IMG/VR virus record: IMGVR_UViG_3300035698_020241
Location: 62,241 to 126,240 of that record
Source of the DNA: a virus
Length of the DNA: 64,000 nt
Reading direction: 5' to 3' (one strand)
Within the stretch, counting starts at the first letter, position 1, and each line of letters begins with the position of its first letter. The position numbers were made by a program, and so were the translations under genes. Positions 33,810-37,256 of this stretch are shown in pieces. Below the pieces are notes generated by a model. The model was not told where the DNA came from. It worked only from the letters and a program-made list of their open reading frames with translations, and ran no database searches.

Positions 33810-33838
33810 TTTACAAAACGACCAAACTATAGTATAAT
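33810..33838 (+). promoter_or_regulatory. Promoter of the Ubl operon
   Basis: TTTACA-N17-TATAAT. Confidence 0.7.
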
Positions 33839-33910
33839 AAGTATAAATTGTGAGTAGTATAAAATTGTCGCACTAAATAGTGTGATGAAAATTTAAAAGG
33901 AGGAACAACA

Positions 33911-34186
33911 ATGACAGATACATATTGGGACAACAGTCCAGAAACAACTGAGGTATTCGCAGACGAAGCAAGCGCAGACACTTACATTCGTGTAAACGGA
34001 AGTAATGTAGCTCTTGAAGCCGGAGCAAACCTTATCGAAACTGTAAAGTCACAAGCCCGTGACGCTGGTCTCGGCAAATTTCGTGTTTTCATGAACGGCG
34101 AAGAAATTCGTCCTTCCGAAGCACCTGATACTATTGCTAGTGGATCTCACCTAGAGCTCAGACCTTACGATGTAGCCGGCGCATAG
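33911..34186 (+). CDS. Ubiquitin-like (beta-grasp) protein
   Basis: Pattern TYIRVNG-VALE-helix-FRVFMNG-EI-LELRPYDVAG-A; Gly at the penultimate position; strong RBS. Confidence 0.75.
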   Translation: MTDTYWDNSPETTEVFADEASADTYIRVNGSNVALEAGANLIETVKSQARDAGLGKFRVFMNGEEIRPSEAPDTIASGSHLELRPYDVAGA

Positions 34187-34278
34187 GTGACAAAGTTTTA
34201 AAGTTTTATTATCTTCTACATCATAGTTATTTATGATGTAGAAGGTGTAAAATGTGTAACATGTAGTAACTTCAAAAT

Positions 34279-35175
34279 GTGAATAAGGAAATTGTAAATA
34301 AAATGGGAATAAAAGAAAGAGCAAAAAAAGATATTGATGAAATGTTTGGTTATCTGGACACTATTGATGTGGATAACATCAAAACGGAAGGGTTAACTAT
34401 TCGTACAGGCGATAAAGTTCTCAAACTTAAAGTTATAAGTGAAAGTCCTATTCCAGAAGTTGATGAAATTCGTGAGGAATTCAGAGCAAAATTAACAGAA
34501 CAGCTCCAGAAGATCAAGGAGAAAATCAATACAAAAATAACTGAAACCTCAAATTTCGTTTCAGGACTAAAAAGAGAGTATGAAAGTAAAGAAAGGGAAT
34601 TAAAAGACAGACTCTCTAAGTCACAGCCAATGCCTGATGTGTTTATGACTCATGCAGAAAAAGGATTGTCTCTTGTAAAAGGTAGATATAAAGATGAATT
34701 AGTATGGCTTGTACAAGGTATTTATTGGCCTAAATTTGTTGATAGTAAACCTCTTGAAGGCAAGTTTTCTAAGAAAATGCTTACTCAAATCATTTTCTGT
34801 ATTGAAACTAAAGGGAATAGAGTAATACGAGTTTCTACAAGAAAACCAGTAGATTTTACATATTTCAGTCATTACCATCAAAGCCAACCTGATTGTTGGG
34901 GTAATTATAAACCCGCCAAAAATTTTGAAACCCCGGAAGATATAATTAATATTGCCAGAGCATCAGAAGCGGTTCTGGAAAACATTAACTTAGGCTCTAT
35001 AGCCGATCATAATCCACGAGGTCTACCAAGATTAACAACGGTCAAAAGGCATGTATTGAAGGTTGATGAAATTAAAGATAAAAAGAAACTTGATATAGGC
35101 ATCCTTAATCAAAATGCAAGGCGAGCTGGTATATCAGGTGATTTAAGAGTTGAAGAAGATTCATGGTCTACTTAA
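34279..35175 (+). CDS. Prokaryotic E2-like conjugating protein with coiled-coil N-terminus
   Basis: FSHYHQSQPDCWG (His...Cys-W-G, resembling the E2 catalytic segment) followed by a helix; position in the operon. Confidence 0.6.
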   Translation: MNKEIVNKMGIKERAKKDIDEMFGYLDTIDVDNIKTEGLTIRTGDKVLKLKVISESPIPEVDEIREEFRAKLTEQLQKIKEKINTKITETSNFVSGLKREYESKERELKDRLSKSQPMPDVFMTHAEKGLSLVKGRYKDELVWLVQGIYWPKFVDSKPLEGKFSKKMLTQIIFCIETKGNRVIRVSTRKPVDFTYFSHYHQSQPDCWGNYKPAKNFETPEDIINIARASEAVLENINLGSIADHNPRGLPRLTTVKRHVLKVDEIKDKKKLDIGILNQNARRAGISGDLRVEEDSWST

Positions 35176-35193
35176 AAAAGAAAGGAAATAACA

Positions 35194-35793
35194 ATGTCAA
35201 TCGTTTATGAAAGACAAGATTTAATTGAAGGTATAGATAAAAAGCAAACCATAACTGTAGTTGGTTGTGGTGGTATTGGATACTGGGTAGCAAAGTTGGC
35301 AGCAATGAGTGGAATTGAAAAGATGTATATCTTTGACGATGATATACTTGAAGAAGGTAATCTTAACAGGCTTGATGTGCCGGATAAATTTGTAGGTAAA
35401 AACAAGGCAGATGTGGTGAAGATTGTTATAAACACACTTCGTCCTGAATGTACTGTTTATGCTTTTCCTTATCGTCTTACTGAAAACCATATGATAGATG
35501 GTTCATTTCTGGTTGATTGTACGGATGAAATCCAATCTCAAATAGACAATCAAAAAATTGCTCGTAAAAAAGGAATGACCTATTTGAAGGCTGGATATAA
35601 TGGGGAGGATTTCTCCATACATAACTCTGTTGCAGAATGGGGTGAAGCACCTGATGGTTATACAAAAACTCCATCGTGGGTTGTTCCAGCATCTATAATT
35701 GCAGCACTTACCGTTGCAAAAATCATGAAGTATAAAAAACTTGAGGTAATATCAAATATAAGAGGACTCTTTGATGCACAAAGACATTCTTAA
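35194..35793 (+). CDS. E1/ThiF-family adenylating enzyme
   Basis: VVGCGGIG, FDDDILEEGNLNR, GKNKA, VDCTD. Confidence 0.92.
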   Translation: MSIVYERQDLIEGIDKKQTITVVGCGGIGYWVAKLAAMSGIEKMYIFDDDILEEGNLNRLDVPDKFVGKNKADVVKIVINTLRPECTVYAFPYRLTENHMIDGSFLVDCTDEIQSQIDNQKIARKKGMTYLKAGYNGEDFSIHNSVAEWGEAPDGYTKTPSWVVPASIIAALTVAKIMKYKKLEVISNIRGLFDAQRHS

Positions 35794-35813
35794 ATTGGAA
35801 GAGATTAAATAAT

Positions 35814-37256
35814 ATGAGTAAAGCGAGTAGAAAAAAGAGAAAGAAAAACAGGAAAAATAAACAACGATTTAATAGAAAGGGTCAGAATATGGTAGTACAT
35901 GCAGATAGTAATATATTTAATAGTAATGTAGCCGATGAATGGGAAGTTGAATTGGACATGGTAAAAGAATGTGATAAAGCTCCGAAAAAATTAGTAGTGT
36001 GGATATTACCTGAAGCAAAAGTAAAGGTTGACGCTTTGATGGAAAAATATCCAAATATTGAGTGGCTTGCATATTTACTTGGAGAGAATCAAACTATTAC
36101 AGATATATGGATTCCTGGACAGGAAATAACAGCAACAAGCGTTGATAATATTGTATGTCCTGAATTCAACGATCTTAATACAATAGGTGTTATACATTCA
36201 CATCATGGCATGGGAAACGGGTTCTCAGGTACAGATCATGAATGGATAAACCAAAACCATAATATATCTCTTTGTATAGCAAAAAACGGTATAGCAGGAC
36301 AAGTAAGATGGAGTACACCTTGTGGATCAATGAAGATAATTGAATGTACAGTACAACTTAAACTTGATGTTAAATTTGACAAGGGTGAGTTCTTAAAAAT
36401 GTCTGAACATAACATTAAAAGAAAAGTAGTACAAGTTACTCCTAATGCATATAATGGTTATGGTTATAATTTTAATCATCCTGGTCAGCAAAGTAAAGGT
36501 ACTGATAAGGACCCATTCCCTGGATCATGTTTATCAAAACATGCAGGAGAAACAAATGAAAAAACCTTAATTGATGAGTTGTCCGAACTTGATGGTAATA
36601 CAGTTGAAGAATGTGGAGATTGTATATATTTCCTTGAAACCTCTGATCAATGTCAAAGAAGTTGGCAAAATGTTACATTACATGGAACTATTTGTGATGA
36701 GTTTGATCCTGGTGATGTAGTGCCTACATGTGGATTATGTAAAGCATATAATGCTGATACACCAACACCTGATACAGGTAAATGTACAGACCCCGATGTA
36801 AGTTTTGATGATGTTACATTTGACGAAGCTGTTTGTATAAATTTTAAGGAAGTTGAGAAGGAAGTTGAGAAGGAAGTTGAGAAGGAAGTTGAGAAGGAAG
36901 TTGAGAAGGAAGTTGATATTGAAAAATGTTGTTTTAATTGTCACCATTTCGTACCAACAAATCATAATGTGGGAAAATGTGGTAATGAGAATACACATTT
37001 TGGAATCGTTGGTTACGGACAAAAATGTGAACAACATAAGGAAAAAGCTGTTGAGCCTGTAAAGAGAGAACAAAATATAGTTGTAAACAAAGGACAGATT
37101 GTTTTTTGTAAAAACTGTAATTCGTTTGAACCAACATCTTATGTTGAAGGAAAATGTTCAAATAATAAGATACTTTCAGATACAGTGTCAAATGTTTCCA
37201 ACTGTAGAGAATTTGTATTACGAGATCCTGTAAAGACAAAGGATATTACAAAATAA
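35814..37256 (+). CDS. JAB/JAMM metalloprotease (DUB-like) with Cys-rich C-terminal repeats
   Basis: E(WLAYL)...IHSHHGMGNGFSGTD = E-HxH-x7-S-xx-D; about five CxxC...C...C modules. Confidence 0.88.
   Translation: MSKASRKKRKKNRKNKQRFNRKGQNMVVHADSNIFNSNVADEWEVELDMVKECDKAPKKLVVWILPEAKVKVDALMEKYPNIEWLAYLLGENQTITDIWIPGQEITATSVDNIVCPEFNDLNTIGVIHSHHGMGNGFSGTDHEWINQNHNISLCIAKNGIAGQVRWSTPCGSMKIIECTVQLKLDVKFDKGEFLKMSEHNIKRKVVQVTPNAYNGYGYNFNHPGQQSKGTDKDPFPGSCLSKHAGETNEKTLIDELSELDGNTVEECGDCIYFLETSDQCQRSWQNVTLHGTICDEFDPGDVVPTCGLCKAYNADTPTPDTGKCTDPDVSFDDVTFDEAVCINFKEVEKEVEKEVEKEVEKEVEKEVDIEKCCFNCHHFVPTNHNVGKCGNENTHFGIVGYGQKCEQHKEKAVEPVKREQNIVVNKGQIVFCKNCNSFEPTSYVEGKCSNNKILSDTVSNVSNCREFVLRDPVKTKDITK
36846..36917 (+). 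repeat. 12-bp tandem repeat x6 (KEVE)
   Basis: AAGGAAGTTGAG x5 plus AAGGAAGTTGAT. Confidence 0.95.

Follow-up and report, generated by a model that had tools for sequence, protein, structure and literature searches.

Ubiquitin-like (Ubl) conjugation in prokaryotes, that is, the conjugation carried out by the CBASS Cap2/Cap3, Bil and Bub systems, has so far been characterised only as bacterial anti-phage defence. The Ubl of the E. aridi Bil system is made with one residue past its reactive Gly (Gly97-Ala98), which the JAB removes, and the E1 of the system, BilD, is eukaryote-like, having an inactive and an active adenylation domain, an inserted CYS domain and a Zn site (PMC10557695). In the Bub (6E/DUF6527) system, the E1 lacks a catalytic Cys and a Tyr of its crossover loop (BubCD Y370) is invariant, the tag is a beta-grasp Ubl, and a JAB is found in Type I (PMC11601596). 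Precedents exist for Gly-Ala trimming by a JAB and for E2s that act without an E3 (PMC10557695, PMC11601596). In phages, the tail assembly proteins I and K of lambda/T1 combine a Ubl with a JAB-NlpC protein (Iyer et al. 2006, PMC1779556). No other phage-borne Ubl-JAB pairing was found in the literature that we searched, nor was a phage-encoded complete Ubl-E2-E1-JAB system.

Here we describe what appears to be a complete kit on a virus, an uncultured T4-like phage from salt lakes. We consider it likely, on the basis of sequence, fold and synteny only and without biochemistry, that this cassette is a self-contained, phage-encoded Ubl conjugation module of an undescribed family. By analogy, it would work like Bil and CBASS but belongs to neither.

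Arrangement and conservation of the locus

The window, that is, the whole stretch of 64,000 nucleotides that was analysed, is part of a viral record of 126 kb that is only ~53% complete. In a search of public runs, the DNA runs with the sequence were salt-lake metagenomes, and RNA runs with it were absent. The features of the locus are as follows.

31535-32440, + strand: clamp loader large subunit (PHROG 168 at 1.7e-59); context, outside the cassette
32665-33039, + strand: clamp loader small subunit (PHROG 225 at 3e-24); context, outside the cassette
33069-33809, + strand: gp45-like sliding clamp (PHROG 223 at 8e-6, Pfam Phage_clamp_A 2.4e-12); context, outside the cassette
33810..33838, + strand: sigma70-type promoter-like site TTTACA-17-TATAAT, starting directly 3' of the clamp stop codon
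33911..34186, + strand: Ubl, 91 aa, beta-grasp, C-terminus ...RPYDVAG-A
34203..34253, + strand: strong stem-loop in the Ubl-E2 intergenic region, 16-bp core 34211-34246
34279..35175, + strand: E2-like protein, 298 aa, HYHQSQPDCWG at residues 198-208
35194..35793, + strand: ThiF E1, 199 aa, Pfam ThiF 5.2e-20
35814..37256, + strand: JAB/JAMM metallopeptidase, 480 aa, E83...H128-S-H130-x7-S138-xx-D141

The four co-oriented ORFs, which are separate and unfused, were confirmed at these coordinates. A preliminary description, made from sequence alone, had claimed one promoter and four co-oriented genes with these motifs, and this observation was confirmed. The true start of the E2-like protein is probably the ATG at 34303, since its homologues begin there. 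The neighbours of the cassette encode the clamp loader, the clamp, HExxH proteins and an M15 peptidase, and 23 phage tRNA genes, including Lys-UUU, Glu-UUC and Gln-UUG, lie just upstream.

The synteny survey that the preliminary description had proposed showed that ~30 distinct T4-like viral contigs keep the order Ubl-E2-E1-JAB downstream of the sliding clamp, with proteins 40-60% identical, and that this order recurs, without the clamp, in distant non-T4 phage contigs, where a small upstream protein also ends in YD[IR]AG. The four-gene arrangement is far beyond chance. A large uncultured T4-like clade has conserved the kit, and other phages carry it in a diverged form. Some relatives with a similar clamp have no cassette and one (L021/L038) retains only the Ubl and E2 genes, and the cassette can therefore be dispensed with in some backgrounds. 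In three relatives, GIY-YIG homing endonucleases are inserted between cassette genes. Among 50,697 GenBank phage records, neither megablast of the cassette nor tblastn of the E2-like protein gave a match, and tblastn of the E1 gave only distant ThiF/MoeB matches (<=34% identity). The cassette family is invisible to Pfam, PHROGs and PADLOC, and it is therefore annotated "hypothetical" everywhere at present.

This distribution bears on a defensive role with the same chemistry. In such a reading, the cassette would be a Bil-like system for superinfection exclusion: competing phages would be fought by tagging one of their structural proteins, just as Bil tags the central tail fibre. In its favour, all characterised bacterial Ubl-E2-E1-JAB operons are anti-phage (PMC11601596; 10.1101/2023.09.04.556158), the cassette is accessory, being missing from related phages with a similar clamp, and homing endonucleases occur between its genes in three relatives. 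Against it, the cassette keeps a fixed place within the cluster of replication genes of a T4-like genome of lytic type, and the ~30 copies in synteny share 40-60% identity; this looks like vertical inheritance rather than a shuffled defence island. Moreover, none of the neighbours with a looked-up family proved to be a defence-associated regulator, and no PADLOC model matches three of the four cassette proteins. We therefore regard a defensive role as unlikely.

Transcription signals, which we newly note here, flank the Ubl gene in most loci: a sigma70-type promoter lies ahead of it, and a strong hairpin follows it immediately. The TTTACA-17-TATAAT site fits the sigma70 consensus at 11 of 12 positions, and AAAGGAGGA stands before the Ubl ATG. 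Of 29 distinct loci, 21 had such a pattern in the 110 nt ahead of the Ubl gene, compared with 2.9% of random 110-nt windows, and none had the T4 late motif TATAAATA. The stem-loop has a dG of -24.3 kcal/mol (z -8.4), and none of 200 shuffles folded equally well. Of 20 related loci, 19 have a hairpin of differing sequence at this position, followed in several by T-runs. It is likely that the cassette is transcribed early in infection from its own host-type promoter, and the stem-loop probably is a partial terminator or an mRNA-stabilising element that yields more tag than enzymes. In both cases the sites are shown and the function is inferred, without RNA data. The early-type promoter suggests that the phage uses protein tagging for its own ends.

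Sequence and fold of the four proteins

The AF2 model of the Ubl (pLDDT 75, core 78-90) is a beta-grasp with a disordered acidic N-terminus bearing a conserved W6. In Foldseek, nearly all of the 50 listed matches were ubiquitin, ubiquitin variants, SUMO, parkin-Ubl, ThiS, SAMP1 and MoaD, mostly at a probability of 0.9-1.0. The motif [YF]D[VTIS]AG is kept in 117 of 117 homologues, and the tail is Ala-Gly, not Gly-Gly, in all of them; 82 stop exactly at that Gly, and the other 35 carry 1-3 variable extra residues. We infer that Gly90 is the reactive residue and Ala91 the residue to be trimmed; the cleavage is untested. The Ubl has no family match in Pfam, PHROGs or PADLOC, profile searches against PDB sequences gave no relatives of the Ubl or the E2-like protein, and no longer, fused Ubl forms were found by search, which is weak evidence.

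The E2-like protein consists of a short beta-hairpin and a long coiled-coil helix (residues 1-115) followed by what the AF2 model shows as a UBC-fold domain (residues ~116-275); the pLDDT is 78 overall and ~90 in the C-domain. The model contains a helix (123-127), strands at 130-134, 140-149, 157-159 (short), 169-178 and 181-188 with a short helix at 161-165 among them, and then a loop, a helix at 219-233 and later helices. With VIA-align, more than 30 solved E2/UEV chains matched residues 114-260 (Z 4.4-6.2), with ~116 of ~148 residues aligned at an rmsd of 4.1-5 A. UbcH10 was the sole globular match of the model among 48,161 representative chains, and the only non-coiled-coil structural matches of the protein were E2/UEV structures. 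The model thus conforms to the UBC fold, whose elements are an N-terminal helix, an antiparallel sheet of four strands, a long loop, a crossover helix and helices at the C-terminus, though the Z-scores are moderate (at most 6.2, rmsd ~4.4 A). Foldseek with the full-length model against PDB gave nothing significant (best E 0.15), coiled-coil matches dominating and Cap2, BilB-complex and Ubc13 chains appearing at low rank only. A Foldseek search against BFVD was without significant matches.

The invariant residues of the E2-like protein are F196, H198, Y199, H200, D205, C206 and W207, and the conserved motif of the family is HYH-x5-DCW. C206 lies within the 189-218 loop, with H198-Y-H200 standing 6-8 residues upstream, HYH being in place of HPN. 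We infer that Cys206 is an E2-type catalytic Cys between strand 4 and the crossover helix; its superposition on the E2 catalytic Cys was not seen. All 120 homologues keep H[YF]H...C. When 1.84 billion proteins were searched with a profile, 229 clusters (50% identity) were obtained, and at least 80% of the distant relatives keep HYH...C.G. The N-terminus differs between lineages. As for named families, the protein has none in Pfam, PHROGs or PADLOC; the curated E2 families (Pfam UQ_con, Prok-E2_A to E) were matched by none of 39 members even at E up to 10, PF14460 had no match in the viral record, and Pfam on ten distant relatives gave no informative domains beyond SH3-like ones. The sole link to a curated E2 family is a lead in the ESM Atlas from the E2-like protein to Prok-E2_D (score 0.88).

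The E1 is a single minimal ThiF adenylation domain of 199 aa with the motifs GxGGxG (24-29), N56/R59, N70-K71 and D108/D111. In a 19-sequence alignment, the ATP/Mg and Arg-finger residues were all present, and the crossover region had no conserved Cys but invariant Y156, S161 and W162. No conserved Cys beyond the DCTD motif and no CxxC pairs were found. The PADLOC CBASS E1-E2 models match at 1.3e-15, in the E1 part only, and the PDB matches were MccB (2.8e-8), UBA5 (7e-8) and Cap2 (4e-6). A MccB-like peptide-adenylating role was rejected though MccB was the top PDB match; in this cassette the E1 would act on a folded protein with a Gly end.

The JAB has a basic N-terminal tail, strongly so in most homologues, a JAB core (~residues 40-200) and a C-terminal extension. 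E83, H128, H130, S138 and D141 are invariant in 21 homologues, so that the zinc site of JAMM metallopeptidases (E...HxH...S..D) is intact. Prok-JAB was matched by 16 of 16 family members (best 1.4e-9); the window protein alone reached 20-21 bits, under the 25-bit cut-off. The family profile aligns in register with AMSH-like deubiquitinases, and it was needed for this, because phmmer with the single sequence against PDB gave no match. The CxxC...C...C module occurs four times in the extension (residues 267-464), which also has a (KEVE)n linker; the coding sequence of the linker is a 12-nt tandem repeat (36846-36917). The Cys modules are missing from 18 of 20 homologues. The Cys-rich tail is phage-specific and outside the conserved system, and the idea that it is a conserved E3-like part was rejected.

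These four proteins could also be read as a sulfur-carrier system. That is, the ThiF protein would adenylate the C-terminal Gly of a ThiS/MoaD/TtuB-like Ubl, which would become a thiocarboxylate and deliver sulfur for tRNA, DNA or a cofactor, and the JAB would only mature the carrier, as in CysO/Mec+ or QbsE/QbsD. This reading is supported by the ThiS, MoaD and SAMP1 matches of the Ubl, by the minimal, MoeB/ThiF-like E1 without a catalytic Cys, and by the upstream phage tRNAs for Lys-UUU, Glu-UUC and Gln-UUG; these tRNA species carry 2-thiouridine. However, in ~30 T4-like contigs, as in those distant phage lineages that were examined, a UBC-fold protein with an invariant Cys accompanies tag and E1, and to our knowledge no sulfur-carrier pathway uses a UBC-fold protein. 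In addition, no PP-loop ATPase or thiolase and no rhodanese was found in the 126-kb record (~53% complete), and the tail is Ala-Gly rather than Gly-Gly in all 117 Ubl homologues. We therefore consider a sulfur carrier very unlikely.

Proposed conjugation pathway and its possible targets

In the conjugation reading, which we prefer, the pathway may be considered as follows. First, the cassette would be driven, probably early, by its own sigma70-like promoter, and the hairpin would let the tag exceed the three enzymes. Second, the JAB would remove Ala91 and expose Gly90; we infer this because the Gly is invariant, the homologues have tails of 0-3 variable residues, and Gly-Ala cleavage has been shown for BilC/BilA. 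Third, the ThiF-type E1 would adenylate Gly90, probably as a homodimer like other single-domain E1s. Fourth, since the E1 has no conserved crossover Cys, the tag would reach Cys206 of the E2-like protein by one of two routes, straight from the adenylate or through a Tyr156/Ser161 oxyester as in the Bub E1. The acceptor site would lie between strand 4 and the crossover helix, with HYH for the canonical HPN and with Asp205 adjoining. Fifth, the E2-like protein would move the tag onto target lysines without an E3, its variable N-terminal coiled-coil part selecting the target, as proposed for BilB. Sixth, the JAB may also reverse the tagging.

Several points stand against this reading: the E2 fold match is moderate, no profile ties the E2-like protein or the Ubl to a named family, the tag ends in Ala-Gly instead of Gly-Gly, and the cassette is missing in some relatives. 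The preliminary description had stated that its reading would fall if the 91-aa protein was not a beta-grasp, if the 298-aa protein had no UBC fold, or if no adenylate, thioester or conjugate formed; the points open to computation all favoured conjugation. The beta-grasp held by model and Foldseek, and the E2/UBC fold by the >30 E2/UEV alignments, with moderate Z. The ThiF E1 (Pfam ThiF) and the full JAMM motif (invariant residues, Prok-JAB) held as well, as did the absence of adjacent sulfur-transfer genes. Its inference that the phage carries its own protein-conjugation machinery is supported by sequence, fold and synteny, without biochemistry.

What is tagged can only be inferred, and no target has been identified. 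The early promoter would fit virion assembly less well than host take-over, counter-defence or regulation of the replisome. In a counter-defence or host take-over reading with the same chemistry, the tag would be placed early on host proteins, for example those of immunity or proteostasis, so that these are inactivated or relocalised; in a variant, the JAB would strip host Ubl or CD-NTase conjugates. This is pure inference but possible: the promoter is of early type with no late promoter, the tag is apparently in excess (hairpin), and the basic JAB N-terminus in most homologues and the lineage-variable E2 N-terminus are consistent with changing targets. Against it, there is no identified target or host, so that a host Bil or CBASS type II system cannot be checked. 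A bolder reading, which we think very unlikely, is that the tag goes onto the phage's own replisome, in particular the upstream gp45-like sliding clamp. If true, this would be a viral, bacterial-world analogue of PCNA ubiquitination/SUMOylation, run on a two-enzyme cascade in which a Cys-less E1 would pass the adenylated tag directly to the Cys of the E2.

Comparison with known systems

The preliminary description had named Bil and CBASS Cap2/Cap3, and of this only a functional likeness held. Membership in Bil, Bub or CBASS was rejected because the defining features of each fail.

The cassette resembles Bil (BilABCD, Types I and II) in having separate genes for a Ubl, a Cys-bearing E2, a JAB and an E1, and no E3. 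The Ubl tail Gly90-Ala91 resembles Gly97-Ala98, and the Bil-type Ubl feature is met for the fold and the C-terminal Gly, exposure by the JAB being inferred. However, the IAD-AAD-CYS architecture of the Bil E1, with its helical-domain Cys and Zn, is not met by the 199-aa single-domain E1. The gene order differs, the E2-like protein is set apart from Bil by its long coiled-coil N-terminus and its HYH...DC motif, and the cassette resides in lytic-type phages whereas Bil resides in bacterial defence islands.

As to Type II CBASS, the cassette E1 is closest, among defence proteins by PADLOC, to the Cap2 E1 domains, and there is a JAB partner, as Cap3. Cap2, however, is a fused E2-E1 that acts on the CD-NTase C-terminus and not on a free Ubl, while the E2-like protein and E1 of the cassette are separate, so that this feature is not met. 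The PADLOC CBASS E1-E2 models matched the E1 only; the Ubl, E2-like protein and JAB had no meaningful match, and the presence of Bil models in the release was unconfirmed.

Like the cassette, the E2-less systems (ThiS/ThiF, MoaD/MoeB, TtuB/TtuC, archaeal SAMP/UbaA/JAMM1) have a minimal E1 of the homodimer type and a small beta-grasp protein of ThiS/MoaD kind that ends in Gly; some also have a JAMM protease. In contrast, they have no UBC-fold partner, they end in Gly-Gly, and most serve, or also serve, sulfur transfer. The lambda/T1 I-K pair is without E1 or E2, lies in a tail gene cluster, and has its Ubl fused to another domain.

The cassette shares with Bub a beta-grasp Ubl tag and, with its Type I, a JAB. 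A likeness in the E1 may also exist, the Cys-less crossover having invariant Y156 and S161, although the equivalence of Y156 to Y370 is not established. The Ser/His oxyester chemistry of the Bub E2 is not met, Cys206 being invariant in the close cassette family and kept in at least 80% of distant relatives; nor are the fusions (Type I Ubl-E2 and JAB-E1; Type II E2-E1), the cassette having four separate ORFs. The best match to the BubE/DUF6527 serine protease in the viral record was below the cut-off (9.6 bits, E 0.14). The enzymology of the cassette would stand between Bil, with its Cys E2, and Bub, with its Cys-less E1, and it could therefore reveal how a minimal E1 passes its tag to an E2.

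Genomic setting and conservation of the cassette

The source of the record is a T4-like phage. The 126-kb IMG/VR record is estimated to be about 53% complete, and the window forms its second half. Judged by the clamp loader, the nearest deposited phages are myoviruses of Microcystis, Pelagibacter, Methylophilales and Synechococcus, with only about 33% identity; near-identical DNA is contained in several salt-lake metagenomes. The replication genes preceding the cassette were identified with PHROG and Pfam as follows.

31535-32440, clamp-loader large subunit
32665-33039, clamp-loader small subunit
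33069-33809, gp45-like sliding clamp

ARAGORN found 23 tRNA genes for 17 amino acids at 2184-31088; they form two arrays, one on each strand. They include a tRNA-Asn(GTT) of 89 nt (29933-30021) beside a normal 76-nt tRNA-Asn(GTT) (25974-26049).

Relatives were found in IMG/VR with a profile of the E2-like protein and, independently, with a profile of the clamp. The order clamp loader, clamp, Ubl, E2-like, E1, JAB was present in about 30 distinct contigs at 40-60% protein identity; contigs of 210, 162 and 120 kb show this order too. The cassette is a genuine, well-conserved feature. It belongs to the accessory genes and not to the core: contigs L040/41, L047, L048-50, L051 and L064 have a related clamp followed by other genes.

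Several relatives have irregular forms of the cassette. L021/L038 (5317-7722) has the Ubl and E2-like genes alone after the clamp; the next gene is glycosyltransferase-like, and no E1 or JAB was found within 6 kb of the retained pair. In L056 (7742-8647) two ORFs, 7742-8182 and 8336-8647, make up the E2-like gene, which near-identical contigs have intact; decay, a frameshift or a fault in the assembly could account for the split. Furthermore, GIY-YIG (Seg-like) homing endonuclease genes lie between cassette genes in three relatives, on the opposite strand.

L016, 6876-7712, minus strand, GIY-YIG homing endonuclease
L028, 7506-8240, minus strand, GIY-YIG homing endonuclease
L023, 8239-9168, minus strand, GIY-YIG homing endonuclease

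The E1 match of L023 falls into two segments, 7694-8284 and 8986-9165, which overlap both ends of the endonuclease ORF.

When the profile of the UBC-like domain was searched against 1.84 billion representatives, 229 clusters passed E <=1e-3, and 77 of these also passed <=1e-30. Distant members range from 300 to 615 aa and differ in their N-termini, and HYH...C.G is kept in at least 80%. We checked the neighbourhoods of three distant relatives (contigs L029, L031 and L032). A ThiF gene follows the E2-like gene in all three, and a JAB gene follows ThiF in two (L029 and L031). The small upstream protein ends in ...YDIAG in L029 and in ...YDRAG-S in L032. These partners are shared in distant contigs, and we therefore think that the genes of the module co-evolve as one unit in different phage lineages. 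The L029 cassette adjoins a Terminase_3 gene and not a clamp gene; that is, the adjacency of cassette and clamp is lineage-specific.

Downstream of the cassette, three tandem paralogues of 214-222 aa, each with an HExxH motif, lie on the minus strand at 37675-39634. Only weak metallopeptidase hints were obtained for them. Two of the three have an identical MRFKQYINEITKP start, which we take to resemble the sequence that targets T4 internal proteins to the capsid. The peptidase M15 gene at 39714-40340 (Pfam 7e-12) probably encodes the endolysin; in the relative L002, a Glyco_hydro_108 lysozyme gene stands in its place after the JAB gene.

Predicted structures and invariant residues of the four proteins

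The 91-aa Ubl gave no match in Pfam, PHROG, PADLOC or PDB sequences. An AlphaFold2 model built from a 42-sequence alignment showed a beta-beta-alpha-beta-beta...beta core (pLDDT 78-90) after an acidic, disordered N-terminus. Nearly all of the 50 matches listed by Foldseek against the PDB were ubiquitin, ubiquitin variants, SUMO, parkin-Ubl, ThiS, SAMP1 and MoaD, mostly with probability 0.9-1.0, although the E-values were just about 1e-2. The C-terminal motif [YF]D[VTIS]AG was present in 117 of 117 homologues. Its Gly is the exact end in 82 of the 117, and the other 35 carry 1-3 extra residues that vary in kind (A, K, V, I, L, S, R and others). Ubls that react through their C-terminal Gly are recognised by this pattern of an unvarying Gly and a dispensable tail. 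We consider this the likely case here, with cleavage and reactivity inferred from the sequence. The Gly-Ala end of this Ubl is the same as that of E. aridi BilA, which BilC cuts between Gly97 and Ala98 (PMC10557695).

The E2-like protein has more than 120 homologues, none annotated and none with a Pfam domain on record, and curated E2 models gave no match to it by sequence. Its model (pLDDT 78 overall, about 90 in the C-terminal half) consists of a poorly modelled N-terminus, a 55-residue helix and a C-terminal domain. The domain is composed, in order, of a helix, a mainly beta region of five predicted strands and a short helix, a 30-residue loop, a long helix and short helices. A Foldseek search was swamped by coiled-coil matches. 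An exhaustive VIA-align search returned a single globular protein, the E2 UbcH10 (Z 6.4; 115 residues aligned, covering 118-260 of the model). A second look with VIA-align gave more than 30 E2/UEV structures over residues 114-260 (Z 4.4-6.2, about 116 of about 148 residues, rmsd 4.1-5 Å), including Pex4, Ubc13, E2-C, Ubc1, Rad6b, E2-25K, UbcH5c, UbcH7 and Cdc34. These Z-scores are moderate on the tool's own calibration. Coiled coils matched the long helix, and a few chains of kinetochore type appeared at lower Z; every other match was an E2 or UEV with whole-domain coverage. The ESM Atlas lead was Prok-E2_D (0.88). Residues F196, H198, Y199, H200, D205, C206 and W207 are invariant, and H[YF]H...C is kept in 120 of 120 homologues. 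By topology, the model predicts that C206 lies in the loop of the E2 catalytic Cys and that HYH occupies the site of the E2 HPN.

Pfam identifies the 199-aa E1 as a ThiF adenylation domain (5.2e-20). PADLOC Cap2 E1-E2 models matched it at 1.3e-15 with the E1 part alone covered, and the PDB matches were MccB, UBA5, Uba1 and Cap2. An alignment of 19 homologues showed no variation at the nucleotide-binding glycines, N56/R59, N70-K71 or D108/D111. Beyond the DCTD motif these homologues have neither a conserved Cys nor a CxxC pair; the residues invariant there are Y130, K132, Y135, W149, Y156, S161 and W162.

The 480-aa JAB alone scored just under the Prok-JAB cut-off, and all 16 aligned family members match Prok-JAB (best 1.4e-9). 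E83, H128, H130, S138 and D141 are invariant, and the family profile aligns in register with AMSH-like deubiquitinases. The C-terminal half (36612-37205) contains four CxxC-x(9-14)-C-x(13-17)-C modules. Its (KEVE)n linker is encoded by a perfect 12-nt tandem repeat, AAGGAAGTTGAG, of about 6 copies (36846-36917), which is likely to vary in length. For the modules, ESM Atlas gave a weak lead (0.76; TM 0.45) to the HiPIP-like cluster-binding modules of 4-hydroxyphenylacetate decarboxylase small subunits. This half is not part of the conserved system, because 18 of 20 homologues, with lengths of 240-370 aa, lack it. The JABs of L012 and L027 carry other, different Cys-rich tails.

Expression signals and the proposed conjugation cascade

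The clamp stop codon is followed by TTTACA-17-TATAAT (33810-33838), a strong Shine-Dalgarno sequence and the four co-oriented ORFs. The preliminary description had proposed one promoter and four co-oriented genes, and this layout held exactly. Of 29 distinct loci, 21 have a sigma70-type -35/-10 pair within 110 nt 5' of the Ubl gene, compared with 2.9% of random windows, and several of the remaining 8 have a near-match. The T4 late motif TATAAATA was absent upstream of the Ubl gene in all 29 loci. A strong hairpin lies 3' of the Ubl stop codon in 19 of the 20 loci with a short intergenic region; here it has a 16-bp core (dG -24.3 kcal/mol, z -8.4). The hairpin sequences are unrelated between loci, with T-runs in several. 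The hairpin and the conservation of the promoter across loci are additions to that description. Together they suggest that the cassette is expressed early by the host polymerase with the tag in excess over the enzymes, but the function of these sites is inferred.

A Ubl conjugation cascade is the best-supported reading and a likely one, with function and targets inferred. In this cascade, JAB would trim the Ubl, and the minimal E1 would adenylate it. The Ubl would then be passed to C206 of the E2-like protein, either directly or through a Tyr/Ser oxyester; Y370 of the Bub E1 is a precedent for a Tyr oxyester (PMC11601596). Finally, E3-independent transfer would occur to targets picked by the variable N-terminal part of the E2-like protein.

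Alternatively, the Ubl and E1 might serve as a sulfur-carrier pair. The nearby tRNA array and the incompleteness of the record keep this idea in play. Against it, a protein of predicted UBC fold with an invariant Cys accompanies the tag and E1 wherever the cassette is found, the Ubl tail is Ala-Gly, and neither a rhodanese nor a PP-loop thiolase was found when searched for in the (incomplete) record. We therefore think that a sulfur-carrier role is unlikely. As for its role, the conjugation cascade could conceivably serve counter-defence or host take-over, keep out rival phages, or regulate the phage replisome, although the last has no synteny support outside the T4-like clade.

Comparison with known systems

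In the literature searched, no paper was found to describe a full Ubl-E2-E1-JAB set encoded by a phage. The tail assembly pair of lambda/T1, which is without E1 and E2 (PMC1779556), is the phage case already known, and for Asgard viruses only E1-like genes have been reported (10.1101/2021.07.29.454249).

By analogy, the cassette would work like Bil, whereas its E1 does not meet the defining E1 architecture of Bil. It shares a Cys-less E1 with Bub, but the Ser/His E2, gene fusions and DUF6527 of Bub all fail for it. Membership of either system is ruled out on these grounds. The E1 also resembles the E1 domain of CBASS Cap2; in contrast to Cap2 it is unfused, and nothing points to a CD-NTase substrate. 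What is new is the E2-like and Ubl families, the pairing of a Cys E2 with a minimal E1 that has no conserved Cys, and carriage by a virus, with a putative early promoter.
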